Shown here: piece after piece, positions 58 to 63,306 of the stretch
How positions within the stretch are numbered: position 1 is the first letter of the stretch
Layout of the letters: the number at the start of each line of letters is the position of its first letter
Virus record (IMG/VR): IMGVR_UViG_3300028597_000007
Length of the DNA: 64,000 nucleotides
Source: a virus
Reading direction: 5' to 3' (one strand)
The notes under the pieces: generated by a model
Databases searched by the model: none
Told to the model about the DNA's origin: nothing
Seen by the model: the letters and a program-made list of their open reading frames with translations, nothing else
Position numbers and translations under genes: made by a program

Positions 58-795
58 GTGAACAAGCCCTATCAATCTGCACCCCTGTCTGAACTGCACC
101 TGCGCGTCGGTGCCCTGCTGTTCTTCGCCAACGAAGTCAACCGTGGCCTGGAGCGTAAAGAGCTGAACCCAATGGGTAGCTTCTACATGTTCGACGACCA
201 CAGCGAAATCCGTACCCCGGCCAATGTGCCCGACAACTGGCCACACGGCCTGGTGCGCATCTTCACCGAACAAGTGAAGGGCGACGAGAAGTTCGAATTC
301 CAGCTGTCTCAGTTCGACCCGGCCATGAACACCGCAGCCTACGACGCCAAACGCGGCGGCGGCCTTGACCAGCAGGGCATCCGCTTCGTGGCTGGTACCG
401 GCTGGCAAGGTCTGAGCGCGCACTACCTGATGGTGCCTGAGTATGACCAGATCTCCTACGTGCCACTGATCGGTAGTCATACCGACGACATCGAAACCAT
501 TCTGGAGCAGTCCAAGCTGGGTGGCTACGATCGCAAGGTCATTCGTGAAACCTACGAAGCCACCGCCATGGCAGCGTACGAGAACGAAGACGACCTCGAA
601 CACGCTCGTGGTGTTCCGCACACCTACCACAACTGGCTGATGCTCAACGCCCTGATCATCGCCAAGATCGTCACCCTGCGCGCGATCGCGCTGGCCGAGC
701 ATGGTGAGAACGTCCTCAACGAAACCATGCAACGCGATTCCAAGACCGGTGCTGTACTGCCGATCGACGTATCAGAAGAGCAAGATCCAGCCTGA
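58..795 (+). CDS. hypothetical protein (245 aa)
   Basis: GTG start preceded by AAGGAAGAG; strong GC3 codon bias; ends at a hairpin element. No recognisable motif. Confidence 0.8.
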   Translation: MNKPYQSAPLSELHLRVGALLFFANEVNRGLERKELNPMGSFYMFDDHSEIRTPANVPDNWPHGLVRIFTEQVKGDEKFEFQLSQFDPAMNTAAYDAKRGGGLDQQGIRFVAGTGWQGLSAHYLMVPEYDQISYVPLIGSHTDDIETILEQSKLGGYDRKVIRETYEATAMAAYENEDDLEHARGVPHTYHNWLMLNALIIAKIVTLRAIALAEHGENVLNETMQRDSKTGAVLPIDVSEEQDPA

Positions 796-854
796 CGGCA
801 TAGCTGCCCCTCCCCGCAAGGGGAGGGGCAGTGAGCCTATGCTCTTTTTTTTTT
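795..854. terminator. bidirectional hairpin with GGCATA/TATGC flanks (element 1)
   Basis: CTGCCCCTCCCC-GCAA-GGGGAGGGGCAG (804-831) between convergent genes; ACGGCATA on the left, TATGC then a T-run on the right. Confidence 0.85.
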
Positions 855-862
855 GCTTCAGA

Positions 863-1390
863 TCACATGTACTGTGCGTAGAAGCCTTGCAGGCGCTCGG
901 CCTGACTTACGTCGCTGACGCACTTCTCGATGCGACCGAAGCCGTAACGGGAGATGGCAACACCACGGCTTCGGCCGTCGCAGGTGGAGGTCATCAGGTG
1001 CAACATGGCTTCCAGCAGGCGCAGGTCCATCACCGGCATGGTCTTGAGCAGGTCCATGAAGCGGTTGCGGTAGCGCATGCTCATGACGCCATTGATGTTC
1101 TTCAGCACCCACTGCAGGAGTGCCTCGTAGGCCTGGTTGAAGTCTTGGCCTTCGAGCTTGAGTACCATCTTGATGATCTTGAGAATGGCTTTCTGCTGCT
1201 TGATGCCTTCCTCTTCGCTCGGTTCATTGCCTTTGGGGTCCATGACCTTTTCGTAGTCAGCCAGCAGGCCGTTGACGGTCTCCATGGTGATGTCGTATTT
1301 GGTCTTGGGTGTCACGTTGGCTTTCGCCACCTCTTTGGCCATGACTTCGGTACCTTCTTCGGTTGGAGTTTGTTCTTCGCCAGCCATCAT
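863..1390 (-). CDS. conserved phiKZ-like hypothetical/virion protein (gp79 position)
   Basis: GAGG SD before ATG 1390; acidic N-terminus; directly downstream of the RNAP beta' gene as in phiKZ synteny. Confidence 0.7.
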   Translation of the reverse strand: MMAGEEQTPTEEGTEVMAKEVAKANVTPKTKYDITMETVNGLLADYEKVMDPKGNEPSEEEGIKQQKAILKIIKMVLKLEGQDFNQAYEALLQWVLKNINGVMSMRYRNRFMDLLKTMPVMDLRLLEAMLHLMTSTCDGRSRGVAISRYGFGRIEKCVSDVSQAERLQGFYAQYM

Positions 1391-1397
1391 TGTTTCC

Positions 1398-2681
1398 TCA
1401 GGTGAAATGGCGCCTTGGATCAAAGCGCGTAGTTTTAAGGGCCGTACCGTGGGCTTTACCCATGAAGATGTACAGCATCATCGAACCCATGTCGGAGGCT
1501 TGACCACCAGGAGAGTTCGGGAAGCGAGCGTTCATGTCGCCCATACACTTGCCGCAGTAACCTGCACCAGGGGTCAGGCAGCGCTGAGGACTCCGCAGGG
1601 TAATCGTCTTGTTGACAATCGCGTCCAGGTTCTGCTCAGTAATGTGCACCGTCTTGCCATTGACGATGATGTAGAAGCCGATGTAGCGCTTGGCTTTATC
1701 TGCTGCCACAAACCGCTTGATACCCAGCACAGACCCGCAGTCGTCTTCGGTGATCGCATGGTTCTGGAATACCCGGATCAGGTACTGTACCGCTTCACCA
1801 CCGAGCGCTGTCTGCGCACCACGGTTGAAGGAACCTTCGCGGAGCGAGTTCGCATAGTCCGGGAGGTTCTTAAGGTTCAGGCCTTCGTCCAGAGACGTTG
1901 GGATCAGGTTCACCTGAGTACCGTCACCGAAAGCAGATTCCTCACCGTGCATGAGCAGCGTCTTCATGCGAACGATGTCGAAGTTCTTCTTACCGATGAG
2001 GTAGTCTTGCGAGTCGTCCCCCTTTACCCAGTCCTTGTCCACCTTGGACAACTCGCCTTTGATGATGGCGATGGTGGCTGGGTCGTGTAGGCGATCCTTG
2101 TACTGCTCCAGAAGCTTTTCGCGCAGTTCCCGTACCTTGGGGTCAGTCACCAGAGATTTACGCGTGGTGCCTGGTGTGAAGAGCTGCGTGAGGCCAGAGA
2201 GGATACATGCAGTAGCCTCCGTGTATCGCAGCAACTCCCAGACATAGATCTTGGCAGGATCGTTCTGGCTACGGTCTTCCGGGTTATTGGTCAGACGCTG
2301 AGCAATGATCTTCTCGATGTCTGACAGACGACGCGGGTTGGGGTCGAAAGGAATCTTGCCATTGAACGCGTAGACCACAGCCAGATGATGCCACAGCACC
2401 CAGGCGTAAGGTGCATTGCAGTCTGCCTCACATCCGATGAAGTCACCTTTCTTGAAGTCGGCCACCTCACGCTTGGAGAACAGTGGCTTGGTGATGTCTG
2501 CTTCAAAGCGAAGCTTGGACTCACCCATCTTAACCACCCACTCCTTACCTTCCACGTAAGGCTCGTACTCGCCCGCCTCACCACGGGTCAGGGAGAATGC
2601 ACGGATCGACCAGGACAAACGTTTGTACAGGCCAAGCTCCATGCATTTGAGAAAGAACAACCGCTTATCAAGCGTTTCCAT
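1398..2681 (-). CDS. virion RNA polymerase beta' subunit, C-terminal-type fragment (phiKZ gp80-like)
   Basis: RpoC-like motifs: GSFNRGAQTALGGE, ITEDDCGS, LRSPQRC...CGKCMG (Zn site) and GGQASDMGSMMLYIFMGKAHG (trigger-loop region, cf. AAQSIGEPGTQLTMRTFH). Confidence 0.88.
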   Translation of the reverse strand: METLDKRLFFLKCMELGLYKRLSWSIRAFSLTRGEAGEYEPYVEGKEWVVKMGESKLRFEADITKPLFSKREVADFKKGDFIGCEADCNAPYAWVLWHHLAVVYAFNGKIPFDPNPRRLSDIEKIIAQRLTNNPEDRSQNDPAKIYVWELLRYTEATACILSGLTQLFTPGTTRKSLVTDPKVRELREKLLEQYKDRLHDPATIAIIKGELSKVDKDWVKGDDSQDYLIGKKNFDIVRMKTLLMHGEESAFGDGTQVNLIPTSLDEGLNLKNLPDYANSLREGSFNRGAQTALGGEAVQYLIRVFQNHAITEDDCGSVLGIKRFVAADKAKRYIGFYIIVNGKTVHITEQNLDAIVNKTITLRSPQRCLTPGAGYCGKCMGDMNARFPNSPGGQASDMGSMMLYIFMGKAHGTALKTTRFDPRRHFT

Positions 2682-6611: not shown

Positions 6612-6899
6612 ATGATCGACAACCGCATGATGCGTCACGCTATCATGGGACATGAGGAGGGGGATGATCCACGCCCCTCCCGCTTTGTGGTGGATAACCA
6701 CACACGTCGCCTGATCCCTTACCGTGACACGTACACGGAGAGCCAGGTCTGTACCAAGTTCGGTATCACCAAGGGCCAGCTGCGTAAAGCAGTGAAGTCT
6801 GGAGGCTTCCCGAAGCCTACCAAGTACGGTCCAGGCAACAAGCCGTGGTGGGCTGACACCATCATCGACAAAGTGTCCCGTGTTGACGAAGACGAGTGA
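6612..6899 (+). CDS. AlpA/excisionase-like helix-turn-helix protein (95 aa)
   Basis: GGGAG SD before ATG 6612; YTESQVCTKFGITKGQLRKAVKSGGFPKPTKYGPGNKPWW fits the AlpA pattern (HTH followed by G.FP.P...G...W). Confidence 0.7.
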   Translation: MIDNRMMRHAIMGHEEGDDPRPSRFVVDNHTRRLIPYRDTYTESQVCTKFGITKGQLRKAVKSGGFPKPTKYGPGNKPWWADTIIDKVSRVDEDE

Positions 6900-6942
6900 C
6901 GGCATAACCTCCCTCCCCGCAAGGGGAGGGAGGGCTTTATGC
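6897..6942. terminator. bidirectional hairpin with GGCATA/TATGC flanks (element 2)
   Basis: CCTCCCTCCCC-GCAA-GGGGAGGGAGG (6908-6933) between convergent genes; the polymerase stop TAA lies inside the right-hand flank. Confidence 0.85.
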
Positions 6943-8688
6943 TGCGTCTTTGTGTTCCTCGTCGTACAGTGCCAGCAGTTCGTTCGAAGCAGGCAGGCCC
7001 AGCAGTTGTTGTGCGATCATGTTACCGTTGACATGACCACCAGTTAGATCGATACCGATCCATCTCCACTGATCCTCCTCCATGCCCTCCACAGATGACA
7101 GTTCCGTTTGCGTTGTGAACTTGTCAATGTTGAGCATGTCCTGCAACTTAGGATACGTTGACACCACGTCGATGTCGGATACGTGCGTGAACAGTAATGG
7201 AACATGTCCTCGCATGTCAGACACAATGTCGTCGTCTGGTTCCGGTCCCATGTAAGCAGGTAGTGTGACGATCCAGTTTCCAAGGCCAGGGCTGGCTTGG
7301 TCCACCTCCGTTAACATCTCGTCGGAAGTAGTACCCGCCATCAGCTTGTACTTCTGCAGGAAGAAGTGCAGGTCGTCAGCGATCATCCGTGGCTGGGAGT
7401 CGTAGTTCTTGTACTCGGAGCACTTCAGAAGAGCTGGCAGGCACATGGCGATGTCGTTGGTGGTTTCATCCAGCATTTCTACCGAGATGTCGTCCCACAA
7501 GTTGTAGATGCAGTATTCCACAGGGAAATACTTCTGCATGAACTGGTGCCACTCTTTCTTCACGAACCCGTCAGCTTCCGTGAACTTAAGCTTGCCGCCC
7601 AGCTTGTGCTTACGCAGCAGATAGTCCAGGTTGTACTCGGGGTCGTTCGCCGATGCCGTGCGGATACGCTTGTACAGAAGCATCGAGTCACAGATGACAA
7701 AGGAAGCCTGGTTGGTCACCGTGTGCCATTGGTCAATCGGGTTGATTGGAACCTTGGTGTCTTTACCGCCGTCCTTCTTGACCTTGTGTGCCGCGCCTTG
7801 GTTCCATTTGAAGTTACGGAACTTCTTAGGAATACGGGGATCGCAGAATACGTCAGCCGGGTCATAGCCAGAGTCACGTAAGGCGCGTTCTGATTTGGGA
7901 ATATCGAACGCCATGTTGAAGATGGTGACGTAGTCTGGTTGCCATTCATGGGCTGCCTCAAAGCTACGCTGCACCAATTGAGCCGGGAAGTCATGGATGT
8001 TGATTTCCATGGTCTGCGGGTCAATGCCACGTTTCTTTAAGATCGGCCCTAATAACTCTTCAGCCTTGTCGCGCACCAGTTGAATGAAGCGTTCTGGTTT
8101 CTTGTCTTCAGCAGACAGCGCAGACTCATCAATCCAGCTGCCCAGAATGTTCATGCTGACATTCTTTTTGTTGGTCATCGACGCGATAATGATCTCCTCT
8201 TCTTCGGAGTTCATATTCGTCTCGATATCGTAGACCGCCACGTTACTTGGGGTAGGTGTTCCACCCCAGCGATCGCGGTAACCACGCTTGACCAACACCG
8301 GTGTAGATACGTCCGCACCGTACAGGTAAGGGGACCTGGCAAGCTGTCTCAGACCGCCCCGAGCATTGGGGTTGCCGAGGGCGCGAGCGACCTTATTATG
8401 TAGTTCATGCTGACTGCAAGTGAACTTCCGAAGCTGCGAGATAGGTGCCCACGGGCGCTTGTCTTTATGTGTCCTGTACTTTTCCAGAGTGACGTAAAAG
8501 TCACGCTGGTAGTTGTGGATCAGACGCAGGTTAGGAATAGGGGGACGCCCGTCCTTGCAGTGAATCAGTTCTTTAACGACGACCACGTCATTAGGCGAAT
8601 AGTCGTTAGCCTTCGAATAAGTTGCGTGCACACATTCGAAGCGGTCGATCTCTTCCCGATCGGGGAGATTTGGATACATGAATGGCAT
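6937..8688 (-). CDS. split family B DNA polymerase, N-terminal 3'-5' exonuclease plus motif A part (phiKZ gp82-like)
   Basis: ExoI VYDIET, ExoII FNMAFDIP, YNLDYL, ExoIII YCIYNLWD, PolB motif A DIDVVSTYP; motifs B and C absent. Confidence 0.85.
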   Translation of the reverse strand: MPFMYPNLPDREEIDRFECVHATYSKANDYSPNDVVVVKELIHCKDGRPPIPNLRLIHNYQRDFYVTLEKYRTHKDKRPWAPISQLRKFTCSQHELHNKVARALGNPNARGGLRQLARSPYLYGADVSTPVLVKRGYRDRWGGTPTPSNVAVYDIETNMNSEEEEIIIASMTNKKNVSMNILGSWIDESALSAEDKKPERFIQLVRDKAEELLGPILKKRGIDPQTMEINIHDFPAQLVQRSFEAAHEWQPDYVTIFNMAFDIPKSERALRDSGYDPADVFCDPRIPKKFRNFKWNQGAAHKVKKDGGKDTKVPINPIDQWHTVTNQASFVICDSMLLYKRIRTASANDPEYNLDYLLRKHKLGGKLKFTEADGFVKKEWHQFMQKYFPVEYCIYNLWDDISVEMLDETTNDIAMCLPALLKCSEYKNYDSQPRMIADDLHFFLQKYKLMAGTTSDEMLTEVDQASPGLGNWIVTLPAYMGPEPDDDIVSDMRGHVPLLFTHVSDIDVVSTYPKLQDMLNIDKFTTQTELSSVEGMEEDQWRWIGIDLTGGHVNGNMIAQQLLGLPASNELLALYDEEHKDAA

Positions 8689-11872: not shown

Positions 11873-11902
11873 GCCCCCTACAGGTTCACGCTTGTAGGGG
11901 GC
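11873..11902 (+). terminator. intergenic hairpin abutting the next SD
   Basis: GCCCCCTACAG...TTGTAGGGGGC just after the 11864 stop and 2 nt before AAGGAG; no TATG flank. Confidence 0.5.
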
Positions 11903-17031: not shown

Positions 17032-17071
17032 CATACGCCCCCGGCTCATTGCGAGCCGGGGGCTATGCCGT
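17031..17071. terminator. bidirectional hairpin with CATA/TATGCCG flanks (element 3)
   Basis: GCCCCCGGCTC-ATTGC-GAGCCGGGGGC (17037-17063) between convergent genes, immediately followed by TATGCCGT. Confidence 0.85.
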
Positions 17072-25227: not shown

Positions 25228-25255
25228 TTCTTCCGTAGCGCCTGGTGCGTTGTGA

Positions 25256-25291
25256 ATAAAAGCCGGGCCTTCGGGTCCGGCTTTTATGCCG
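25256..25291 (+). terminator. hairpin with TATGCCG flank (element 4)
   Basis: ATAAAAGCCGGGCC-TTCG-GGTCCGGCTTTTAT then GCCG; between co-directional genes. Confidence 0.85.
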
Positions 25292-28941: not shown

Positions 28942-30311
28942 TGGAGACACGTCGCTCAACCTTAATGCAGGAAGTGCGTGCGATCTTTGACGATGGCTCC
29001 AAGCCTGTTCATTTCCTTTGGAAGTGCGACATCACGGCAGGAGGCGAGAAGATCGAACCCTTCCGTACCCTCAACATGGATATCGGTCGTCACTACACGC
29101 TCAACTTTGCTGAGGACATTTCGGTTGAGCTGCAAGTGCGTCCATCGGAGTACGTCGACAAGATCTACCCCAATCGCCAGAACATCACCGTCACGCTGTA
29201 TCAGATCCCTCTGAATGAAGACGGCACGGAGAATTGGGATCAGCCTCGTTACCTTGAGATCTATCGAGGTAACATCAAAGGGGCAAAAGACCCGAAGCTC
29301 AACGCCCCGCGTGAAGTGGGAACGAGCGATGACCTGGATCTACAAGGTCCAGTGGTGGTGGAGTTCCAGTTGGTATCTCGTGCGCTTGAGCAACTGCGCT
29401 TGCAGATCCCAGGTGGCAACTACCGCCACACTACCCCAGGCCGTGTACTGCGTTCGATCATGGATCAACTACGAACCAAGATCAAGGTGGATAACATCGA
29501 GGCCATCGTTGGCACCGATATGACCCCACCCGACAACACCGTCGTTCGCGAGCACGTCATTGTTCCTCCGTTACCAGTCACGAAGTTGCCGCTGTACATG
29601 CAAGAGAAAGCTGGCGGTGTTTACAACGCTGGCATCTCTTTCTTCTTGCAAGGTGACAAGTGGTACGTCTTCCCGCCGTATGGGATTGATTCCCCGACCG
29701 AACGGGATAAGCGTATCCTGACAATCTTCATCGTCCCACCTAACCAGTTCCCTGGTGTGGAACGTACCTACCGAGAAACTATCGGGCAGGTTATTGTCAT
29801 GTCCACCGGTGGCTCTTCCAACAGCGACATGTCAGAGGCACTGGACTTGAACTCCGGTAACGGTATTCGGTTCAGTGATGCGATGTCGATGTTGGATGGA
29901 TTCGTCAAGACAGAGAACGGGGTACCTGTTGCTCGTCGTGGTGTGTCGGCTTCTGAGTTCGTTGACGGGACACGTGACACGGGCCTTAACTTTGCACCAG
30001 TGGCCACCGAGCGCATCACTTCCAACGCCATGAAGATGGCATCGAAGCTTGCACCTCGTAAGGGCATGACCATGCAGGTCGTCTGGGAGAACGCTAACCC
30101 GTTCACGGTGTACCCAGGCATGCAGTGCCGCGTCTATGTGCTGCGGGACAATGTGCTCGAAGAACGTAAGGGGCGCCTGGTGGATGCGCAGTTCCTGATT
30201 GCCCCCAAGAGCAAGACTGCCCGCAATTCACAGCAGGCTTGCGTTGGACACCTCGCTGTATTCGTTTCCAGAGCGACTGAGCTTGACAGGCTACCAGACG
30301 TCACGGCATAA
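28941..30311 (+). CDS. baseplate hub-like virion protein (gp101 position)
   Basis: TAATG stop/start overlap; GGAGAGG SD; hub-like organisation (VIVPPLPVTKLPLYMQEKAGGVY...SFFLQ...WYVFP). Confidence 0.55.
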   Translation: METRRSTLMQEVRAIFDDGSKPVHFLWKCDITAGGEKIEPFRTLNMDIGRHYTLNFAEDISVELQVRPSEYVDKIYPNRQNITVTLYQIPLNEDGTENWDQPRYLEIYRGNIKGAKDPKLNAPREVGTSDDLDLQGPVVVEFQLVSRALEQLRLQIPGGNYRHTTPGRVLRSIMDQLRTKIKVDNIEAIVGTDMTPPDNTVVREHVIVPPLPVTKLPLYMQEKAGGVYNAGISFFLQGDKWYVFPPYGIDSPTERDKRILTIFIVPPNQFPGVERTYRETIGQVIVMSTGGSSNSDMSEALDLNSGNGIRFSDAMSMLDGFVKTENGVPVARRGVSASEFVDGTRDTGLNFAPVATERITSNAMKMASKLAPRKGMTMQVVWENANPFTVYPGMQCRVYVLRDNVLEERKGRLVDAQFLIAPKSKTARNSQQACVGHLAVFVSRATELDRLPDVTA

Positions 30312-30361
30312 GCGAACTCCTCTCTACGGGCCTCTGTGGGGCTCGTAGAGGGCTTTATGCC
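30303..30361. terminator. hairpin with GGCATA/TATGCC flanks (element 5)
   Basis: CTCTACGGGCC...GGGCTCGTAGAG (30322-30350); the upstream stop TAA lies in ACGGCATAA; TTTATGCC downstream. Confidence 0.8.
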
Positions 30362-32397: not shown

Positions 32398-32444
32398 CGG
32401 CATAGTAGCCTCCCTCCCACCTTCGGGTGGGAGGGGGTTATGCC
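32397..32444. terminator. bidirectional hairpin with GGCATA/TATGCC flanks (element 6)
   Basis: CCTCCCTCCCACC-TTCG-GGTGGGAGGGGG (32409-32437) between convergent genes. Confidence 0.85.
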
Positions 32445-32462
32445 ACCATCTTTTTTTTTGTT

Positions 32463-34548: not shown

Positions 34549-34669
34549 TCTGGAAGCAAGGTCTGGAGCTACAGGCACTGTAGTAACAGGTATTCTATAG
34601 CGAACTGGTATACGGGTCGCTCGTTAGTCGACTAACACAAACGCAGCATCCAGTCACTGGAGATTCTAC

Positions 34670-36988: not shown

Positions 36989-37076
36989 TCCGTAAGGGTT
37001 GGCAAGTACAACGCTCTGCTTGTATAGGGGCGGTGGTAACATGGGTCTCGTGTTACCACGCGTACTTGAAAACATG

Positions 37077-37108
37077 AGGGCAGGCCTTCGGGCCTGCCTT
37101 TATGCCGT
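37077..37108 (+). terminator. hairpin with TATGCCG flank (element 7)
   Basis: AGGGCAGGCC-TTCG-GGCCTGCCTT then TATGCCGT, downstream of the capsid gene. Confidence 0.85.
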
Positions 37109-38445: not shown

Positions 38446-38463
38446 CAACGGGGAGTTGTCTGG

Positions 38464-40083: not shown

Positions 40084-40110
40084 CCAGTATTTAAGTAAAA
40101 GGACACAAGC

Positions 40111-42489: not shown

Positions 42490-42557
42490 GCAGTCAAACT
42501 AACCCCTCCCTATCAACCACTGACAACCCCGGTGACAACCAAGAGCGCCTAATAAGC

Positions 42558-42611
42558 GCATAGAGTCCAGGCCCACCGGGGGCCTGGACTCCACTTATGC
42601 CTCTATTTTTT
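42558..42611. terminator. bidirectional hairpin with GCATA/TATGCC flanks (element 8)
   Basis: GAGTCCAGGCCC-ACCGG-GGGCCTGGACTC (42563-42591) between convergent genes. Confidence 0.85.
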
Positions 42612-42618
42612 TTTTACC

Positions 42619-45345: not shown

Positions 45346-45391
45346 CGGAAGTCCTTCTATTACAGGTGTCACAAATTTTGGGGTGCTGGCG

Positions 45392-47605: not shown

Positions 47606-47631
47606 TACGTGCCAAACGAGTAACCTCTCCA

Positions 47632-47661
47632 TGAGCGGGCCTAGTGCCCGCTTATTTTTTT
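47632..47661 (+). terminator. canonical rho-independent terminator
   Basis: TGAGCGGGC-CTAGT-GCCCGCTTA followed by TTTTTTT. Confidence 0.7.
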
Positions 47662-47679
47662 GTCAAACGGACGATTATC

Positions 47680-49957: not shown

Positions 49958-49965
49958 GGCTGAAC

Positions 49966-50829: not shown

Positions 50830-51417
50830 ATGGATACCAGACACGATCGTGACTGTGTTCGTGTCATGGGCATAGACCCAGGGTCCCGGACCCTGGGCAT
50901 TGCTATCACCACATGTTTTCCGTACGAGCAGTGCTGGACGCTTGACGAGGCATGGACACTGAACACCGAGTACCACTTGCAGCAGAAACGTTTCCGTGCA
51001 GCGCGCGTGGGTGACCACCAGGTACGCATGGAAGCCATTGAAGAAGAGGTGTTTGAAGCGCTCTGCAACTTCTACCCGGATGTGGTGATCATGGAGACCC
51101 CCTACCTTGGACGTCTCCCGCAATCGTTTTTCGTGCTTACGCAGGTAATGGTGGCGATCGAGCGAGCTGTTCAGCGCTACTCTGCTGCCATGCACCTGGA
51201 GAAGGTTGAGCCTTCTGTTGTAAAGAAAGCGATAGGGGTTCCTGGGAACTCGCCTGACAAGACTTTGGTGTCTAAGGCTGTAATGGCCTTGAAGAACCTG
51301 GAGAACCTGTCAGAGAAGCCTCTCAGCGCCCTGGACGAACACAGTATCGATGCCACGGCTGTGTGCCATTACTACTGCACCACCGAACTCGGGTTGGAGT
51401 GGAAGAAGCCATGCTAA
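50830..51417 (+). CDS. ruvC: RuvC-like Holliday junction resolvase
   Basis: VMGIDPGSRTLGIA, VVIMETP, PSVVKKAIG...DK and DEHSIDATAV supply the RNase H-fold RuvC catalytic D/E/D/D set. Confidence 0.85.
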   Translation: MDTRHDRDCVRVMGIDPGSRTLGIAITTCFPYEQCWTLDEAWTLNTEYHLQQKRFRAARVGDHQVRMEAIEEEVFEALCNFYPDVVIMETPYLGRLPQSFFVLTQVMVAIERAVQRYSAAMHLEKVEPSVVKKAIGVPGNSPDKTLVSKAVMALKNLENLSEKPLSALDEHSIDATAVCHYYCTTELGLEWKKPC

Positions 51418-52092: not shown

Positions 52093-52520
52093 ACCTTTTT
52101 ACCGCGGTGACGCAGTACGAAAATTCCCCCATCGGGAATCAGTCGTGGTATCCGATGGTCCCCCTCATCCTGCTCAGCTTCCCTGCGGGTACACAGTTCG
52201 ACCCAGTCATGACGTGTAAGGAGTTCCTCCAGCATGTCATGAGCCTGGATCAGGAGAAGCGTGCCCGTATCCTGAACATGGAAATCCCGGTTGTGGCCGA
52301 ACAGGTAGAAGATGCCAAGCGTTCTGGTCACAAGAGCATGCTGCTGGCCATCGTCGGCATGGCGTTGATTGCCAGCGTGCTGATCCTGGGTGGATACTTC
52401 GCGGCCACTGCTCATGTGGGCGGTACCGCAGACTCCACCACCATTGGTAGCTTCTTCGACTTTGTCAAAGAGATTGCCAAGATGGCCTTCGAGATGCTCG
52501 CAGGTCAGCCAGGGGCATAA
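52089..52520 (+). CDS. membrane protein, holin candidate
   Basis: GAGGAG SD; ATGA overlap with the o-spanin stop; TM helix MLLAIVGMALIASVLILGGYFAA plus an amphipathic C-terminal helix. Confidence 0.45.
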   Translation: MNLFTAVTQYENSPIGNQSWYPMVPLILLSFPAGTQFDPVMTCKEFLQHVMSLDQEKRARILNMEIPVVAEQVEDAKRSGHKSMLLAIVGMALIASVLILGGYFAATAHVGGTADSTTIGSFFDFVKEIAKMAFEMLAGQPGA

Positions 52521-52560
52521 AGGACAAGCTCCCTCCCCGCAAGGGGAGGGAGTATGCCGT
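52514..52560. terminator. bidirectional hairpin with GGCATA/TATGCCG flanks (element 9)
   Basis: CTCCCTCCCC-GCAA-GGGGAGGGAG (52529-52552) between convergent genes; same core as elements 1 and 2. Confidence 0.85.
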
Positions 52561-53828
52561 CACTTGAAGATGTCGCGCTTGATTTCAAGGATGTGGGGGC
52601 GTGCAGGGCGACGACGGTCACGGTTGCTCCGTACAGCGTCTACCGCGTTGACATTTCGCCAACGGATGTCGTGCATGCGCATGTGGTCGTGAGTGCCCTC
52701 AGGGGCCATCAGCGTCCACTTAGGCGTGTGGTCGTGCAGCAGGTAATTGAGCATCCGACCATCGTGATGTTGGCAAGGCGCCTTCACGGTTTCGTGGTGG
52801 TAGAATGCACAAGGATGCTGACCGATCTCCAGAGGGATACGGTTGAAGTACACATCCGGGGAATTGACCACGACAACGAACGTCTGGCTCAGGGTCATCA
52901 GTGCCTGAATGAAAGCACGACCACGAGACTCTGCAACAGAGATCATCGTCGGTGCATCTTTCTTCTTGGACACCACCGAGCGGGCAGCAGACAAGTCCAT
53001 GTACTGCTCAGCTGTCAGGAAACGTTCCAGGTAAGGGTATTGCAACAGGTTAACTTCAAACAGCCCGTTACCCACAGCACGGAACACATTGCCCAGTGGG
53101 ATCAGATGGCCGAAGAGCACCAACATAGCAGAAGACTTACTCCAATCGACACCAGGCACAGAAACGTAGATTGGAGTATCCAGGGTAGCTCCAGCAGCAG
53201 GGAGTCCGCCGAGCATCGTAGTAGTGATAGGAACAATCTTGCAGCCTCCAAGTTTGGCAAAGCTGATCAACCCGAGGCTATTGATGTCGGACTTCTGGAC
53301 AGTACGCCCACCTTGCATGACATAAAAACCTGCGGTAGAAGAATAGGTGCGGTGCAAATAGCCTGCAACGCTGGCCAGTGTGTTGGCCTCTATCATCCCG
53401 CCGGTCAGTCCTTCTTTAGTGACAAGCAAGTCCGTCTTGGCAGCCACTGGCAGTTCAAGACTAGGCTGGCCGCCAGACACCACCATCTCGACTTTGAACT
53501 TCGCATGGATGGCGTCAGAGTAAACAGCTTGCACCGTTTCCACCGAAGTGAAAGTGGTGGTGGGGAGCGCAGTGTTGCCGAGCGCGGTGAACCACTGACC
53601 CAGCGTCATTTGTGTTTCGAACTTCTGCACGTAGGGCAGGGAGTCCTTGAAGAAATCGAACAGGAAGAACTTGTCCTTGTCCGCGTTATTGGTCAGCACC
53701 ATGCGGGTTTGGCCCAGCACGGCACCAACAGAATGCACCTCTACAGCGAGAGCGGTGGCAAGGTCTTGCTCAACCCAGCGCATGCCATTCTGGTTGACCT
53801 TTGCAAAAACTTTAGTTGGAGTATACAT
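52560..53828 (-). CDS. conserved virion structural protein (422 aa)
   Basis: GAGG SD before ATG 53828; divergent from the tail-fibre operon. Confidence 0.65.
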   Translation of the reverse strand: MYTPTKVFAKVNQNGMRWVEQDLATALAVEVHSVGAVLGQTRMVLTNNADKDKFFLFDFFKDSLPYVQKFETQMTLGQWFTALGNTALPTTTFTSVETVQAVYSDAIHAKFKVEMVVSGGQPSLELPVAAKTDLLVTKEGLTGGMIEANTLASVAGYLHRTYSSTAGFYVMQGGRTVQKSDINSLGLISFAKLGGCKIVPITTTMLGGLPAAGATLDTPIYVSVPGVDWSKSSAMLVLFGHLIPLGNVFRAVGNGLFEVNLLQYPYLERFLTAEQYMDLSAARSVVSKKKDAPTMISVAESRGRAFIQALMTLSQTFVVVVNSPDVYFNRIPLEIGQHPCAFYHHETVKAPCQHHDGRMLNYLLHDHTPKWTLMAPEGTHDHMRMHDIRWRNVNAVDAVRSNRDRRRPARPHILEIKRDIFK

Positions 53829-58205: not shown

Positions 58206-58910
58206 ATGCTCGAACACATTCGCGCTTCAGGTCTGTGGTTCTATGTCCTGGACAAAGAGAAAAATCAGCAAATCAACATGCGCCTTTCCGCGGTTCGTCA
58301 GGAGATGGTTTGTCCCCTGGTCGATCCCGTGGTGGTCGTATCGTTCGGCAGCTTTATCGTACCGCTGAAAGGCGACGCGGTTCTGCCTACTGAGGCAGAT
58401 GCAAGCAAGTGCACACCTTATACCACCGCAGACGGCGATACGGAGATCATCATGCTGTTTGAACCAGCAGTCGGCACTAACCCTGCCCTGTTGTTCGAAC
58501 GCTGTGCTACGGTGGTTACAGAGGTTCTGCTGGGCGGGCATCGCCCAATGGGCTACCAGGCCTACAAGGAATACCAGAACAGCCTGAACAAGGTTGCTGG
58601 TTCCAAGTTGCAAAGCGCCAGCGATGGTAGCCCAACGGGTCAGGTGGGTGTGTGGGACGTTCGATTCACTCGTACCTTTGGTGTGGGTGAAGATCGACTG
58701 TTCTCCAAACTCAGCAGCCTGGCTACCTACCGTGCAGGTTATGTCAATACAGGTGTCGAGAACATCGGCGGGCTGTACAGCTTCCCGACTGGCTTCAAGT
58801 TGACCAGCTCCGTGGAGGGCGTTGACTTCTTGGACGTCATGACCAATCTGCTCGCAGCAGTCAAGGTAAACGGTGATCTGGCTCAGGTCGAAAGTTACCG
58901 CATTCGTTAA
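58206..58910 (+). CDS. hypothetical tail-region protein (234 aa)
   Basis: AGGAG SD; coding bias. Confidence 0.7.
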   Translation: MLEHIRASGLWFYVLDKEKNQQINMRLSAVRQEMVCPLVDPVVVVSFGSFIVPLKGDAVLPTEADASKCTPYTTADGDTEIIMLFEPAVGTNPALLFERCATVVTEVLLGGHRPMGYQAYKEYQNSLNKVAGSKLQSASDGSPTGQVGVWDVRFTRTFGVGEDRLFSKLSSLATYRAGYVNTGVENIGGLYSFPTGFKLTSSVEGVDFLDVMTNLLAAVKVNGDLAQVESYRIR

Positions 58911-58957
58911 GTCATAGACCAGCCACTGCCCATTCGGTGGCGGTGGCTGGCTTATGC
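58911..58957. terminator. hairpin with TCATA/TATGC flanks (element 10)
   Basis: CCAGCCACTGCC...GGCGGTGGCTGG (58919-58950) after the 58910 stop. Confidence 0.8.
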
Positions 58958-58996
58958 TAAACACTATGAATTATCACCCACCTCATGGAGCCAACC

Positions 58997-61900
58997 ATGG
59001 CTAAAGACGTTTGGTTCAGTAAAGAGCCAGGTCGCTATGCGCCCCCACAAACGGTCAACTGGGTAATCTCTGACAACATTGATTACTTCGCTATCTCTAC
59101 CGACGACAAGGCCACGGCGATCTCCGAATACATTGCCTATGACACCTTGACCCCACCTAACCCGTTCATCGCGGTTACTCAAGACGGCAATGGCCAGGTC
59201 GTTTATGATGGCGGCTTCCCCAAGTTCTACAACGCCGCGGCGCCAACTGGTGACCTGACTGGCTCCATCACCATTGAGTTCAAGGCCACCTGTGCTGGTA
59301 CGAGTGACCCAGAGGCCAACCTGTACTACTACAACGCTTTCAGTGACCTGCCATGTCTCATTGCCGCAGGTGACAAGCTCGTGTACGACATGTGGCAGAA
59401 CAGCAATGATGCGCGGGTAGGTCTCGACGCTGTGACCAACCAGCCAATGACGTCGAAGTATTATTCGATGCGCGACTGGGGCAAGGACTACAACGACGCA
59501 AGTGTCCCTTACGGCCTGTATGACCAAAACGGTGTTTGGAGTCACCCAGCCGTTGACCTCGCTGGTCGTGCCACCAATAAATGGTATCACCGCGAGATTG
59601 ACCTGACCAAATGCGCAGGCTATACCTTCGTTCGTTGGTCTTTGGCGATGGAGGGGGAAAAGGCTGGCGACTTCGCTGTACGCTTCCGCAACATCCAGAT
59701 CATCGACAAGAACGGCAACCTTAAATACACGCTGTTCAAAGACAGCATCAAGCTCCCAGGCAATACTTCGGCAGAAGCTGGCGCCAGCGGTTACTCCAAC
59801 CTGGTCAAGCAACTGTTCGACCCACGCCCACCTTTGTCGGCTGCATTCAAGTACCTTTTCAACGCATTCAACTGGTGCGCCAACCCGGCCAAGGTAAACG
59901 CTGGTAACCGTAAGGTACTGATCCTGGGTGACCGCCCAGGGGCTGACGTCAACTATTCCGTTAAGGACAGCGTCGGTAACGCAGGCTTCGGTAAGAGCAT
60001 TGCTGCTATCTGCTCGCTCACGGGCTTTACGGCAACTGTCAAGACCCACGAGGACTATGCCGGATCGCTGCTCAACCCAACCCAGGCTGAGTTGAATGGT
60101 TACCCACTGGTCGTTGTCTTCTCTTCCGGTAGCGGTGGGGCTGGTCCGATTACCGAGGCAGCATGTGATGCATTGGCGGCGTACCGTGCAGGTGGTGGCG
60201 GTTTGATCATCATTACCGACCACGGGCCAGTGCTGGATACATTGGATGCGGCTAAAGCGGGTGCCCCCAATGACAGTAACCAGTTCTTCGCCACGGCTAA
60301 CAAGGTGGCAACTCGCTTCGGCGCTTGGTTCTCTGGCAACTTTGACCGCACGCCAGTTAACGTAGGTTTCCTGCGCACCAACTACGGAGACCACCCTCTA
60401 TATGCTGGCATGGCGAACAACGAGAACATCGCTGCAGGCTTCTCTGAATCCCGTGTGATGGTGCCATCGGTAACCAAGTACACCAAGGCTTCTCCTCCTC
60501 CGCCCCTGAGTTTCCCAGTGATCGGTCGCTACCCAGTGCTGGTTACCATGAAACACAAGGATGCCACGGTTGAGAGCTTTAGTGTGGTCTTCGTCATGGG
60601 GTCTACCAAGTACCTCAAGTGGACCGCTGTGGGTGGTACCGAGATCACATCCACTGACTTGGGCTGGGGTTGGCAACCAGACGTTGAGCTGGTGATGGAC
60701 ACCATCGGTCTGGGTGACTGCGCGGGCTCCATTTACCACAACACGACCAAGATCGGTGAGTTCTCTTGCACTGACTTGGGTGGTCCTGTCATCACTTGGT
60801 ACTCGGGTAGCTCCTACGCATTGAAGACCTTGGATGGCGACAAGCTCCGTGCTGTTCTGGAGTCTGGTTTGTCCTACACGGCAGACCTCGCAATCAAGCG
60901 GGTTAACTTCGATGCGACCAAGGGTCGTTCCATGGCAGCCATCGAGCAGCAGTTGCGCAGTGGTAGCTGGAACCTGCCATCGCCTGTTCCCCGTATCAAC
61001 CAAGGCGGCGACATTGTTCGTTCGTTGTTGCCAGTGGATGCGACAATCGATGGTTTCGGTAAGGTGTTGGATTTCTCGACACCGGCCCAGAATATCCGAC
61101 TACTCCGCGAGTTCGCTGCAGGTAACTTCCCACTGTTCGACGTCAATGCCATGGCCTACGCTACTACTGCGGCAGCCCAGCAAGCAATGTCGACCATGAA
61201 GCCGCCGACGTTGTTGGATGTGTTTAACACCTGGCCACGTTTCTCCAACGCCAACTGGTACCCAACTCAGGCAGACATCCCTGCAGGTAGTGAGGCATTG
61301 TCTTGGGCGTGGGATGAGGCCAGTGGTTCGCCAAAGTCCACGGTCAACTCCGCCACTTACCTTGGCTTGGTCAGCAAGGAGAAGGTGGAGAACTTCGTAC
61401 TGGAGTCTACGTTCTCGTCCAGCGCCAACGACGATGACGTGATCGGGTACATTGTTGCCGCTCGTTACACCGATAAGCTGGAAACACTCAGCCTGTTGGT
61501 TAACCCAGGCGGCTGGGCAGCATATAAGGGCATGGCGTTGGTGTACAACTACCAGTTGCCGGGCACAAAGACGCTGGCTATGAACGACCAGCTGACCCAG
61601 TGGGCGGCTAACGGCGGCTTGGGTTACTGGCCGGGGAAAGACATTCGTGTTGGCATGGTGCGCCGGGGTGCAAACCTTGCGTTCTACGCAACCGACTGGG
61701 GCGACCCCAATGGACCACGCAAGGCAGAGTTCCAGTTCGACATGAACAGCGACCCTATCCTTGCCGGACTGCTGGGAGCACAGTCCTACGGCTACAGCAT
61801 GATCTCTCAAGCCAACTCGATCTTCAAGAACGTTCGGTTTGTGGGTGGCGTGCTTTACGACGTGGTGGTGGACGTTCAGGCCAATGCCGTGTACCGCTAC

Positions 61901-62482
61901 AATGGCACTGCTTGGGTGGTTGTACCGGGTCTGAAGCCTGCCAGCATCTACGGGACTCGTCGCAAGATGATCTCCCAAGACACGTTGCAGGAGTTCTACA
62001 TCAACGCGGATGGCACCATCACCAAGTTGACTGACCCAGCGCCCATGGTGGAGTTCACTCCCCCTAACGCTGCCATGTTCCTGAACCCAGTGACCGGTGA
62101 AGCTGCAGTGCCTAAGTACCGCGTGTACTCGGCTGAGTATGGTTGGGCTTCTTTGCCAGCCAACCTCACCATGTACTACTACCGGACGATGCATTTCCCG
62201 GCAGGTACTTACATCTTTATGGCTATCGTCGACGACCAGTTGGAGATCTCCATTGACGGTGTGGTAAAGGGTACCATCTCTGGTGGTTTCAGTGCAGGTT
62301 CCACTGTGCCGAAGTTGGAAGTGACAGTGACTGCCGGCGACCACAAAGTGCGGCTCATGAACAAGAACGTCCCAGCTAACACGCCGGGATACTTCTTGCT
62401 CAAGATCTTCAACAAGGCAGATGGTTCGGTGTTCCATGAACCTACGCCGGGCACGTGGCAGACTGTAGATGTAATTGGGTAA
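58997..62482 (+). CDS. large multidomain tail/virion protein with putative carbohydrate-binding modules
   Basis: GGAG SD before ATG 58997; beta-sandwich region, GATase-like LIIITDHG segment, lectin-like FSSSANDDDVIGY segment and PA14-like YIFMAIVDDQLEISIDG C-terminus. Confidence 0.6.
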   Translation: MAKDVWFSKEPGRYAPPQTVNWVISDNIDYFAISTDDKATAISEYIAYDTLTPPNPFIAVTQDGNGQVVYDGGFPKFYNAAAPTGDLTGSITIEFKATCAGTSDPEANLYYYNAFSDLPCLIAAGDKLVYDMWQNSNDARVGLDAVTNQPMTSKYYSMRDWGKDYNDASVPYGLYDQNGVWSHPAVDLAGRATNKWYHREIDLTKCAGYTFVRWSLAMEGEKAGDFAVRFRNIQIIDKNGNLKYTLFKDSIKLPGNTSAEAGASGYSNLVKQLFDPRPPLSAAFKYLFNAFNWCANPAKVNAGNRKVLILGDRPGADVNYSVKDSVGNAGFGKSIAAICSLTGFTATVKTHEDYAGSLLNPTQAELNGYPLVVVFSSGSGGAGPITEAACDALAAYRAGGGGLIIITDHGPVLDTLDAAKAGAPNDSNQFFATANKVATRFGAWFSGNFDRTPVNVGFLRTNYGDHPLYAGMANNENIAAGFSESRVMVPSVTKYTKASPPPPLSFPVIGRYPVLVTMKHKDATVESFSVVFVMGSTKYLKWTAVGGTEITSTDLGWGWQPDVELVMDTIGLGDCAGSIYHNTTKIGEFSCTDLGGPVITWYSGSSYALKTLDGDKLRAVLESGLSYTADLAIKRVNFDATKGRSMAAIEQQLRSGSWNLPSPVPRINQGGDIVRSLLPVDATIDGFGKVLDFSTPAQNIRLLREFAAGNFPLFDVNAMAYATTAAAQQAMSTMKPPTLLDVFNTWPRFSNANWYPTQADIPAGSEALSWAWDEASGSPKSTVNSATYLGLVSKEKVENFVLESTFSSSANDDDVIGYIVAARYTDKLETLSLLVNPGGWAAYKGMALVYNYQLPGTKTLAMNDQLTQWAANGGLGYWPGKDIRVGMVRRGANLAFYATDWGDPNGPRKAEFQFDMNSDPILAGLLGAQSYGYSMISQANSIFKNVRFVGGVLYDVVVDVQANAVYRYNGTAWVVVPGLKPASIYGTRRKMISQDTLQEFYINADGTITKLTDPAPMVEFTPPNAAMFLNPVTGEAAVPKYRVYSAEYGWASLPANLTMYYYRTMHFPAGTYIFMAIVDDQLEISIDGVVKGTISGGFSAGSTVPKLEVTVTAGDHKVRLMNKNVPANTPGYFLLKIFNKADGSVFHEPTPGTWQTVDVIG

Positions 62483-62519
62483 ACATGAGCCTCCCCTTCG
62501 GGGGAGGCCTATGCCGTCA
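62483..62519 (+). terminator. hairpin with TATGCCG flank (element 11)
   Basis: GCCTCCCC-TTCG-GGGGAGGC (62489-62508) then CTATGCCGTCA. Confidence 0.85.
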
Positions 62520-62600
62520 ATCTAAACAGAGGGGGTAATCTATTAGGCGAAACACCATCGCCCACACCCGCCGAGAGGCATCCCATCGAGGAAAAGAAAC

Positions 62601-63260
62601 ATGCGCTTTAAACTACACCTGAACTCTGCGTTCAAATACTGCACCATTCCATTGAGTCAACTGCACACTCTTAAAACAGAGCTTGGTCTCTGCTTTAACC
62701 TACCCACTGATTACCTGGATGACAACATTCTGTGGGAGATCAAAGAAGGGCGCCTGGGCGGTGAGCCTCAGGACCTATTCGATGAAAAGAACACGTCATC
62801 TCTGGGCAAACGTGGCGTGTCTCCAATTGTCACGGCGTTCTTGAGCGATGCCATGACTCGACAACTAGCATCCGTTTGGGACAACATGAGTCCTCTGCTC
62901 ATGTTAGATTCTGGCCCCCGTAGCATGCGCTGGCAAGTCATCTTGGTCCCAGACGCTTTGGAGACCATCCACGAGTATCCGTTCATGGATGTTCGTGGCT
63001 ATCTGCGGGTCATTGGCAAGCACCCGCTCAGCCTGCGCGACGCGATGGTCGAGATCGCTAGCTACGAAGAGACCCCACCAAGCAATCCCACAGTGCTTGT
63101 GAAAGACGAGATCTCGGTGGGGGCAGTGCCACAGACCGATAGGTTTGTCCATCAAGTCTCGCGTCAGCGTGTTGAACGAACTGAACTGATTCCGAACATC
63201 CTGTGGCGACACAAGCCGGAACTGGACAAGCTCTATCGAGAGTACCGCGCCAGCAAGTAA
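62601..63260 (+). CDS. hypothetical protein (219 aa)
   Basis: GAGGA SD; single-gene unit between two hairpins. Confidence 0.7.
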   Translation: MRFKLHLNSAFKYCTIPLSQLHTLKTELGLCFNLPTDYLDDNILWEIKEGRLGGEPQDLFDEKNTSSLGKRGVSPIVTAFLSDAMTRQLASVWDNMSPLLMLDSGPRSMRWQVILVPDALETIHEYPFMDVRGYLRVIGKHPLSLRDAMVEIASYEETPPSNPTVLVKDEISVGAVPQTDRFVHQVSRQRVERTELIPNILWRHKPELDKLYREYRASK

Positions 63261-63261
63261 C

Positions 63262-63306
63262 GCATAAGCTCCCCGGCTCCTTTCGGGGCCGGGGAGTATG
63301 ACGTCA
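63262..63306. terminator. bidirectional hairpin with GCATA/TATGA flanks (element 12)
   Basis: CTCCCCGGCTCC-TTTC-GGGGCCGGGGAG (63269-63296) between convergent genes. Confidence 0.85.

Follow-up and report, generated by a model that had tools for sequence, protein, structure and literature searches.

The twelve gene-end elements described here, each a GC-rich hairpin with a TATG tail, are very probably the transcription terminators of the phage that carries them, and would represent the local form of a family terminator, 'stem-loop + (T)TATG-Y-Y-G-T'. They lie in the window, that is, the whole 64,000-nt stretch of viral DNA that was analysed, and function is assigned to them in this phage through the homology of their motif and position. 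The signal is largely ordinary, as terminators of this kind have already been mapped experimentally in phiKZ and 201phi2-1. In phiKZ, 61 mapped terminators yield the consensus BCCYCCCCHWWDGGGRRGGBYTTATKYYGT, and RNA 3' ends map to these stem-loop + TTATKYYGT elements (Putzeys et al. 2024, microLife, PMC10914365). In 201phi2-1, terminator motif A (n=59) occurs with a stem-extending motif B (PMC11512511). The original prediction had offered the motif as a candidate new signal, and in this respect it has been overtaken by these publications; its broader claim of a gene-end termination signal with a sequence-conserved tail in place of a U-tract is supported by placement and conservation.

Window proteins match phiKZ-like phages only, at no more than 35% identity (tblastn), and PHROG matches include a major head protein, a DnaB-like helicase, an RNAP beta-like subunit, and a phiKZ GP123-like 'polymerase'. 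Judging from its sequence, the phage appears to be an uncultured representative, with a GC-rich genome, of the Chimalliviridae, the phiKZ-like, nucleus-forming jumbo phages. The features of a phiKZ-type terminator are found together in this Chimalliviridae genome: a GC-rich stem-loop (12/12), a TATG tail (12/12), and placement at gene ends.

Direct reading of the window revealed hairpins at all twelve positions named by the original prediction, and TATG starts 0-6 nt 3' of the core stem in every element (12/12). The tail reads TATGC in 11/12, TATGCC in 8/12, and TATGCCG(T) in 5/12, the exception being TATGACG at 63269; 2-4 T precede ATG in several tails. All hairpins are stable, with fold energies of -20.9 to -39.6 kcal/mol. 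Three loops are GCAA and four are TTCG, and the elements at 804, 6908, and 52529 do share the identical core CCCTCCCC-GCAA-GGGGAGGG. Arms of the CCYCCCC type occur in approximately six of the twelve elements, including the three with the identical core, and the remaining stems are GC-rich but different. Stop codons are embedded, as had been noticed, in TGACGGCATA (795, 6899) and in GCATAA (30311, 52520). Two related gene-end hairpins were missing from the original prediction, at 47634-47652 (with TTAT and T7) and at 11873-11902 (without a tail). The elements are given below, with core stems and TATG starts as read directly, together with their state in G001, a collinear IMG/VR relative (near-complete 231 kb genome, ~72% nucleotide identity to the window).

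796..854, both strands: putative two-way terminator between plus gene 58-795 and minus gene 863-1390; CGGCATA 796-802, stem-loop 804-831 (GCAA loop), TATGC 838-842 (TATG from 838), T10 845-854, -39.6 kcal/mol; hairpin then TATG on both strands; in G001, another stem with a TTCG loop, with GGCATA, TATGC, and the T10 run kept.
6900..6944, both strands: putative two-way terminator between plus gene 6612-6899 and the DNA polymerase gene 6937-8688 (minus; phrog_3011); CGGCATAA, stem-loop 6908-6933, TATGCTG 6938-6944 (TATG from 6938); in G001, loop flipped from GCAA to TTGC, stem and both flanks retained.
17032..17071, both strands: putative two-way terminator between plus gene 15682-17031 and virion structural gene 17071-20007 (minus); CATA, stem-loop 17037-17063, TATGCCGT (TATG from 17064); in G001, compensatory change of CTC/GAG to CCC/GGG, same tail.
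25251..25291, plus strand: putative one-way terminator 3' of internal-head-protein-like gene 23992-25227; A-run, stem (~25258-25283) with a G-U pair that is possible in plus-strand RNA only, TTCG loop, TTTTATGCCG (TATG from 25285); left flank GAATA, without CATA; in G001, element retained, wobble shifted.
30305..30361, plus strand: putative terminator 3' of gene 28965-30311; stem-loop 30322-30350, TTTATGCC 30354-30361 (TATG from 30356), left GGCATAA overlapping the stop codon; in G001, TATGCC kept, left CATA gone.
32398..32460, both strands: putative two-way terminator between plus gene 32032-32397 and the DnaB-like helicase gene 32463-34010 (minus; phrog_3213); CGGCATA, stem-loop 32412-32435 (TTCG loop), TATGCC 32439-32444 (TATG from 32439), T9 32452-32460; in G001, flanks and T run retained.
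37073..37108, plus strand: putative one-way terminator ~90 nt 3' of the major head protein gene 34670-36988 (phrog_3231); CATGAG, stem-loop 37079-37098 (TTCG loop), TTTATGCCGT (TATG from 37101).
42558..42615, both strands: putative two-way terminator between plus gene 40111-42489 and virion structural gene 42619-45345 (minus); GCATA, stem-loop 42563-42591, TATGCC 42596-42601 (TATG from 42596), T10 42606-42615; in G001, compensatory swap of GAGTCC/GGACTC to GACTCC/GGAGTC.
52514..52560, both strands: putative two-way terminator between plus gene 52155-52520 and minus gene 52560-53828; GGCATAA, stem-loop 52529-52552 (GCAA loop), TATGCCGT (TATG from 52553); in G001, stem entirely different (CTGCCCGCCCC), tail TATGCCGTCA identical.
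58913..58958, plus strand: putative terminator 3' of gene 58206-58910; CATA, stem-loop 58919-58950, CTTATGCT (TATG from 58953); in G001, stem unrelated and left CATA absent, TATGCTA retained.
62483..62517, plus strand: putative one-way terminator 3' of the 1165-aa structural/tail-fibre-like gene 58985-62482; ACATGA, stem-loop 62489-62508 (TTCG loop), CTATGCCGT (TATG from 62510), -20.9 kcal/mol, the lowest stability among the twelve; without a separate G001 orthologue because the next gene is absent from G001.
63262..63304, both strands: putative two-way terminator between plus gene 62601-63260 and a minus gene ending at 63304; GCATAA, stem-loop 63269-63296, TATGACGT (TATG from 63297); in G001, another stem, left GCATAG, right TTTATGCCG.
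47631..47663, plus strand: variant gene-end element; stem-loop 47634-47652, then TTAT, then T7; the sole canonical-looking terminator within the window, fitting the T option at K of the phiKZ consensus TTATKYYGT; in G001, another stem with CTATTTTTTTG.

Each predicted transcription unit in the window is closed by one of these elements, and the same tail ends replication/RNAP-gene units as well as virion-gene units. Elements sit at seven convergent and five co-directional junctions, as originally described. At 7/7 convergent junctions the hairpin and TATG occur on both strands; co-directional junctions have them on the sense strand alone, and divergent junctions lack them (0/6), so that the motif does track incoming transcription. 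The same orientation is found in G001, where 20/23 convergent and 1/23 divergent junctions carry an element, co-directional junctions are divided into 23 sense-only versus 1 antisense-only, and 79 of 81 elements are intergenic. Gene-end, direction-oriented placement with two-way use at convergent junctions, as in phiKZ-type terminators, is thus shared by the window and G001.

Elements between convergent gene pairs are two-way palindromic units, and those between same-strand pairs are one-way units. The two-way palindromic design of the convergent elements explains why CATA flanks them to the left and TATG to the right, and why GGCAUA can pair with UAUGCC. As had been reported, the left copy is degraded at three of the five co-directional junctions (GAATA at 25256, ACATGA at 37077 and 62489). 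One-way elements in G001 lack a complementary left flank, and at 30322 and 58919 the left CATA has been lost in G001 with TATGC retained. Since one-way elements lack the left copy, the extended GGCAUA/UAUGCC stem is best regarded as a by-product of two-way terminators, and as the functional unit once suggested it is disfavoured.

The tail is preserved in sequence, whereas the stems have drifted through compensatory substitutions. TATGC is invariant at 11/11 sites orthologous in G001, at which the stems show compensatory swaps, full replacement, or a flipped loop. A mobile palindromic repeat (REP/MITE-like) was considered and rejected, as 11/12 sites have G001 orthologues whose divergence, through compensatory changes, took place in situ; moreover, three window copies have only a 20-nt core in common, against the near-identity including flanks of such repeats. 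When 46-nt windows were slid along each strand and folded, and TATG was sought in the 26 nt beside the loop, the top class of hairpins (-26 kcal/mol or below) carried TATG on the 3' side in 20/23 cases versus ~0.9 expected (p ~6e-26) and on the 5' side in 0/23, and weaker hairpins in the window carried it at background level. The corresponding counts in G001 are 46/64 and 1/64. Overall, the window holds no excess of TATGCC (13 seen versus 10 expected), and 8 of the 13 copies fall directly 3' of the twelve hairpins.

The motif search in related Chimalliviridae that had been proposed likewise favours a family signal. Among the 4-mers that lie 3' of strong hairpins, TATG shows the highest enrichment in the window, G001, phiKZ, Xoo-sp14, RP12, and Goslar, and ranks second in 201phi2-1. 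The tail profile, yTTATG[C/T][C/T]G[T], matches that of phiKZ and 201phi2-1, and the capsid gene is followed by a hairpin and TATG in 7/7 Chimalliviridae genomes examined. At 54-58% GC the A and G of the tail are kept (G follows TAT in 75-85%, and C is avoided), whereas in AT-rich relatives the G of TATG becomes T or A in roughly half of tails. In the control RSL1, a non-Chimalliviridae jumbo phage of 58% GC, TATG is not enriched (4/183 downstream versus 3 upstream), and the top 4-mer 3' of hairpins is TTTT. Among IMG/VR copies of the identical hairpin core, TATG follows 5/7 on contigs of 230-315 kb and none of eight on contigs below 40 kb.

Tails read directly and a scan of positions 30001-50000 both indicate that the twelve elements are not canonical intrinsic terminators. 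With a U-tract defined as at least 5 U within an 8-nt stretch that begins 0-2 nt from the stem, the scan returned 19 sites, not above shuffled sequences (15.3 +/- 3.7), and missed every TATG element on the sense strand; among plus-strand hits, only 47631-47655 lies at a gene end and is terminator-like. In the window, many elements have GC-rich sequence 3' of the stem, e.g. CUAUGCCGU, which does not sit well with the weak hybrid on which canonical intrinsic terminators rely.

Evidence from 201phi2-1 bears on how such an element may work. The printed termination sites all lie at a hairpin followed by TATG (TATA in one) plus 1-2 nt (8/8), ~8-9 nt past the stem, and 7/8 fall between a Y and a G. 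'TATG + 2' cannot be separated from 'stem + 8-9' here, because the stem-to-TATG spacing in 201phi2-1 is nearly fixed and ONT-cappable-seq resolves ends to ~+/-2 nt (PMC11512511). Eight cloned 201phi2-1 terminators were all reported functional in uninfected P. chlororaphis, six of them matching or exceeding lambda T0 (PMC11512511), in a fluorescence trap in which a strong hairpin could reduce downstream signal otherwise than by host RNAP release; on this evidence the cloned elements would stop host RNAP as well, and the phage-RNAP specificity that the original prediction had proposed is not supported. Release would then be of the intrinsic type and driven by the hairpin, with a short, weak UUAU next to the stem and a pyrimidine-then-G step (UAUGYY-G) taking over the pausing and release role of a long U-tract. 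The signal may be read by multisubunit RNAPs generally, namely both phage polymerases and the host enzyme. The pause step in particular is inferred.

It is conceivable, though rather unlikely, that the tail is instead recognised by the phage nvRNAP itself, resulting in a pause that leads to release or in recycling of the enzyme. The phiKZ late promoter core is 5'-TATG-3', with the start at G, and is bound by GP123 (PMC4666361, PMC12809450) on the non-template strand. The window encodes a GP123 homologue (38464-40083), and across seven genomes the pocket is largely conserved (F151 and H331 invariant, K158 either K or R, H185 and Y406 aromatic); in addition, the A and G of the tail survive at 54-58% GC, where U-richness is lost. 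With a similarly low probability, nvRNAP could read UAUG/TATG via the GP123 beta-lobe pocket used at late promoters. If true, one four-base word would mark the start of this sigma-less polymerase and, after a hairpin, its pause and release or restart. However, the pocket is incomplete in the transcribing complex according to the authors of the structure, Y399 is not conserved across the seven genomes, and roughly every second tail in AT-rich relatives has T or A in place of G. The function reported for 201phi2-1 elements with host RNAP in uninfected cells also argues against this reading, and a tail that ends both replication/RNAP and virion units suggests more than one polymerase.

Somewhat less probable is a dual use in which the TATG of the tail also serves as a late promoter start for the next same-strand gene, or as an antisense start at convergent junctions. 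The tail does contain the late-promoter core including the start-site G, and many one-way elements in G001 are followed by a ribosome-binding site and start codon within ~10-25 nt, e.g. TATGCCCAAGGAG, but a compact genome would produce equal spacing to the next gene. TATG alone is insufficient for nvRNAP initiation, and the bona fide phiKZ promoter P119L has no upstream hairpin. Promoters at the convergent junctions (7/7 with the motif on both strands) would yield antisense RNA only, and just four antisense RNAs with a mapped start were found in phiKZ. In the window, hairpin-TATG is missing from the divergent junctions (0/6), the places at which promoters would be expected. The terminator-coupled promoter of the original prediction is thus disfavoured at convergent junctions and keeps a low probability at co-directional ones.

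Very improbable is an RNA tag, in which the hairpin and tail or the extended stem act as a 3' stabiliser, processing site, or nucleus-export mark: GNRA and UUCG tetraloops cap hairpins of high stability, the conserved tail could bind a protein, and flanks can pair at two-way sites, but the extended stem is dispensable at one-way elements without a complementary left flank, 201phi2-1 3' ends 8-9 nt past the stem lie at the distance expected of termination and probably farther out than exonuclease trimming back to a hairpin would leave them, and the conserved GT after the tail lies mostly beyond the mapped RNA end.

Interpreted as terminators, the elements can be compared with several known systems. 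They resemble canonical intrinsic (Rho-independent) terminators in the GC-rich gene-end hairpin, in two-way use at convergent genes, and in RNA ends that fall ~8-9 nt past the stem in relatives, but no element (0/12) has at least 5 consecutive U immediately 3' of the stem on the sense strand, and it is sequence conservation rather than mere U-richness that marks the tail. With the phiKZ late promoter core they share the same four letters and the preference for G at the fourth position, whereas phiKZ late promoters such as P119L lack an upstream hairpin and depend on downstream sequence; unlike promoters, the window elements lie at gene ends, occupy both strands where genes converge and are missing wherever genes diverge in the window. 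The consensus elemental pause of multisubunit RNAPs is G(-10) Y(-1) G(+1), which reportedly emerged from NET-seq pause studies in 2014. The tail has Y-then-G steps (UAU-G, YY-G) ~10 nt after the G-rich 3' arm, a likeness that is a resemblance only for these polymerases.

The closest counterparts are the terminators of phiKZ and 201phi2-1, in which RNA ends have been mapped, whereas the window elements are known from sequence alone. As in phiKZ, the window elements combine a C-rich 5' arm and a G-rich 3' arm (CCCTCCCC...GGGGAGGG), a tetraloop, and, no more than a few nt further on, (Y)TTATGCCGT; they sit at gene ends with two-way copies between convergent genes, and a terminator 3' of the major capsid gene is conserved in position. 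Unlike phiKZ, the window genome has 55% GC (versus 37%), K is nearly always G and YY mostly CC, such that the tail is not U-rich, the stem-to-tail spacing is 0-6 nt (versus mostly 1-3), and several stems are not of the CCYCCCC type. Motif A of 201phi2-1 is similar in its hairpin + CTTTATGYYGT, its elongated two-tier stems with pairing flanks, and a T run after a subset; for the 201phi2-1 elements, unlike those of the window, 3' ends have been determined experimentally and terminator traps run in vivo. By position, the 201phi2-1 termination site 132,419, which has been both mapped and trap-tested, corresponds to the window element at 37077.

Twelve GC-rich hairpins stand at gene ends in the window, at about 804, 6908, 17037, 25256, 30322, 32409, 37077, 42563, 52529, 58919, 62489 and 63269, all with a TATG 0-6 nt past the core stem. 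The tail reads TATGC in 11 of these elements, TATGCC in eight and TATGCCG in five. Three elements share the identical core CCCTCCCC-GCAA-GGGGAGGG, stop codons are embedded in TGACGGCATA or GCATAA, and three left copies of the motif are degraded, all of which the original prediction had described correctly. When 46-nt windows were folded on both strands with a cut-off of -26 kcal/mol and TATG was scored within 26 nt of the loop, it lay on the 3' side in 20 of 23 fold windows and on the 5' side in none, compared with a chance expectation of about 0.9 (p ~6e-26). The association between hairpin and TATG is far above chance. Weaker hairpins carried TATG at the 3% background, and TATGCC is not enriched across the window (13 observed vs 10 expected), with eight of the 13 copies directly after these hairpins. 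Final hairpin calls used strict energy cut-offs and a motif-anchored test, after more permissive finders. Since a standard scan for a stem plus U-tract gave no excess over shuffles and missed all 12 elements on the sense strand, it was fair to describe the tail as standing instead of a U-tract, with the caveat that several tails open with two to four T. No Rfam family matched the elements.

The window has a GC content of 55.4%, and its large proteins match phiKZ-like jumbo phages only, with identities of up to 35%. The Xanthomonas phages Xoo-sp14, RTH11 and LucasX and the Ralstonia phages RP12 and RP31 match best. PHROG matches in the window include the following.

DNA polymerase
DnaB-like helicase
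virion structural proteins
1398-2642, minus strand, RNAP beta-like subunit
34670-36988, major head protein
38464-40083, homologue of phiKZ GP123, the TATG-binding subunit of the phage polymerase nvRNAP

A Pfam search with eight large window proteins (one later shown to be an antisense shadow) and an IMG/VR peptide-pattern scan with the 978-aa structural protein returned no match. The minus-strand ORF at 34595-37075 was rejected as a gene, being an antisense shadow of the capsid gene. An exact-motif DNA scan of IMG/VR yielded a relative, G001 (IMGVR_UViG_3300011774_000001, 230,984 bp), that matches the window collinearly from end to end (about 72% nucleotide identity) and served as proxy for the remainder of the phage's genome. 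The contig is listed as linear in IMG/VR, with a CheckV completeness of 83%, but its two ends (1-120 and 230865-230984) overlap the same window stretch (36074-36195), which suggests a circularly permuted and essentially complete genome of about 231 kb.

On a gene map built by codon bias, every predicted transcription unit of the window is closed by such an element. The motif occurs on both strands at all seven convergent junctions and at none of the six divergent ones, and a listed element lies at five of the 34 same-strand junctions. Across G001, 20/23 convergent and 1/23 divergent junctions carry the motif, same-strand junctions carry it on the sense strand only in 23 cases vs one on the antisense strand only (p ~3e-6), and 79 of 81 elements are intergenic. 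In both genomes the placement is as expected for terminators, and the elements provide a clean transcription-unit map for an uncultured giant phage. Two further occurrences were set aside: a minus-strand hairpin with TATG at 50876-50898, which lies in a coding region and loses its TATG in G001, and a hairpin-associated TATG at 19414 (minus strand) within a gene, taken as chance. A strong hairpin at 11873-11902 (-27 kcal/mol), between two same-strand genes, lacks a TATG tail in the usual place; its stem is conserved in G001 while its loop varies, and it may be an attenuator or stability element. Directly downstream lie the ribosome-binding site and start codon of a 1246-aa ORF (11917-15657, plus strand). 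This ORF shows a strong coding signal, has a conserved counterpart in G001 and found no match by Pfam, PHROGs, megablast or tblastn (50,697 phage records).

The TATGC tail is unchanged at all 11 sites with a G001 orthologue, and the stems evolve freely. Compensatory pairs are seen from window to G001 at 17037 (CTC/GAG to CCC/GGG) and 42563 (GAGTCC/GGACTC to GACTCC/GGAGTC), and the entire stem is replaced at 804, 52529 and 58919. At 6908 the stems are identical, and the tetraloop (6919-6922) is GCAA in the window and its reverse complement, TTGC, in G001 (~202100). This looks more like a flip, an inversion within the palindrome, than four separate substitutions, and it shifts the GNRA loop onto the RNA of the other strand.

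Mapped RNA ends were available for the related phage 201phi2-1, as eight termination-site coordinates printed in the text of its transcriptome paper (PMC11512511), which we placed on the genome sequence. All eight, on the plus strand, fall 1-2 nt after the TATG (TATA in one) that follows a hairpin, about 8-9 nt past the stem, and seven of them coincide with a pyrimidine-then-G step. Since every printed end adjoins TATG or TATA, the contrary scenario set out with the original prediction, namely 3' ends mapping independently of TATG, does not hold in these relatives. The terminator behind the capsid gene is the one at 132,419, and window element 37077 is its positional counterpart. We prefer to regard the elements as intrinsic-type terminators, in which a short UUAU segment and a pause-type step between pyrimidine and G would replace the U-tract; this pause step we infer from general knowledge of multisubunit RNAPs. 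A literature search on the termination mechanism in Chimalliviridae found nothing. In a subset of terminators, runs of 6-10 T start 3-11 nt after TATG, beyond the RNA ends mapped in 201phi2-1 (window 3/12, G001 8/60, 201phi2-1 15/67, RP12 12/98; about 0.1-0.3 expected). Those of the window are conserved in G001, and such runs may act as a second-tier stop or as a signal at the DNA level.

845-854, T run
32452-32460, T run
42606-42615, T run

It is unlikely that the tail is read specifically by the phage polymerase, as was originally proposed. GC-rich lineages do keep the A and G of the tail (G follows TAT in 75-85%, and C is avoided), and the GP123 homologue of the window keeps F151, H331 and aromatic residues at 185 and 406; in AT-rich phages, G after TAT drops to 43-52%, with T or A instead. 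However, the GP123 pocket is described by its authors as incomplete in the transcribing complex, and the same tail closes window units that hold virion genes and others that hold replication and RNAP genes. Moreover, all eight 201phi2-1 elements were reported to work when assayed by terminator trap in uninfected P. chlororaphis, six of them matching or beating lambda T0 (PMC11512511), so that host RNAP itself appears to stop there. Sequence-specific reading of the tail by a polymerase would make it unusual among the termination signals of multisubunit RNAPs and would tie in with the unsolved problem of how nvRNAP chooses a four-base promoter.

TATG is indeed the late-promoter core of nvRNAP, as the original prediction had stated; transcription starts at its G, and a pocket of GP123 holds all four bases of the non-template strand (PMC4666361, PMC12809450). 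That the tails double as terminator-coupled promoters is nonetheless improbable. They stand on both strands at convergent junctions and are absent from the six divergent junctions of the window; TATG alone is insufficient for initiation by nvRNAP, the bona fide phiKZ late promoter P119L has no upstream hairpin, and only four phiKZ antisense RNAs have a mapped start site. In the 14-nt gap from which the helicase gene and, ahead of the capsid gene, a gp119-like ORF diverge, a hairpin-free CCTATATGTTCGGAGG (34018-34026) is identical in G001 and corresponds in position to P119L. TATAG and CTATA are the top enriched 5-mers upstream of G001 genes (15 regions vs 1.6 expected), usually 40-80 nt before start codons and conserved between the two genomes; one copy precedes the major head gene by 74 nt.

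3530, 3553 and 34596, plus strand, TATAG/CTATA
53879, 53894 and 34024, minus strand, TATAG/CTATA

They are a candidate promoter core of the lineage; if late promoters use it as their core, starts and terminator tails would carry different signals.

An extended GGCAUA/UAUGCC stem as the functional unit is rejected, because one-way elements throughout G001 lack a left flank that could pair, and at two same-strand sites, 30322 and 58919, G001 keeps the right TATGC but not the left CATA. The extended stem arises where two tails face each other at a two-way terminator. The reading as a mobile repeat is rejected as well, since G001 has orthologous sites.

The elements have known counterparts in relatives. 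Transcript ends of phiKZ, mapped by ONT-cappable-seq (Putzeys et al. 2024), gave 61 terminators with a common stem-loop and TTAT region, 5'-BCCYCCCCHWWDGGGRRGGBYTTATKYYGT-3' (PMC10914365), and the same motif is motif A of 201phi2-1 (n=59), often accompanied by a stem-extending motif B (PMC11512511). The window consensus, CCCTCCCC-loop-GGGGAGGG-(Y)TTATGCCGT, is this published motif. Independently of the published logo, we ranked 4-mers by enrichment 3' of strong hairpins: TATG came first in the window, G001, phiKZ, Xoo-sp14, RP12 and Goslar and second, after TTAT, in 201phi2-1, and all seven share the tail profile yTTATG[C/T][C/T]G[T]. Two controls were negative. TATG showed no enrichment in RSL1, an unrelated jumbo phage of 58% GC (4/183 downstream vs three upstream), where the top 4-mer was TTTT. 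The identical 20-nt hairpin core was found at 15 IMG/VR loci; TATG followed 5/7 of those located on 230-315 kb contigs and 0/8 of those located on contigs below 40 kb. The major capsid gene is followed by a hairpin and TATG in 7/7 family genomes examined, and direct inspection of phiKZ also showed it after gp120. The core of the original prediction, a sequence-specific terminator without a canonical U-tract, was right, but the element had already been published for relatives, and the more novel parts of the prediction (phage-RNAP specificity, extended-stem tag and coupled promoters at convergent junctions) are unsupported or disfavoured. As it stands, the window elements repeat an already known element. 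The published phiKZ and 201phi2-1 motif now extends to deep-branching, GC-rich lineages, and it is the word (T)TATG-YY-G, not U-richness, that stays conserved over the range of 37-58% GC.
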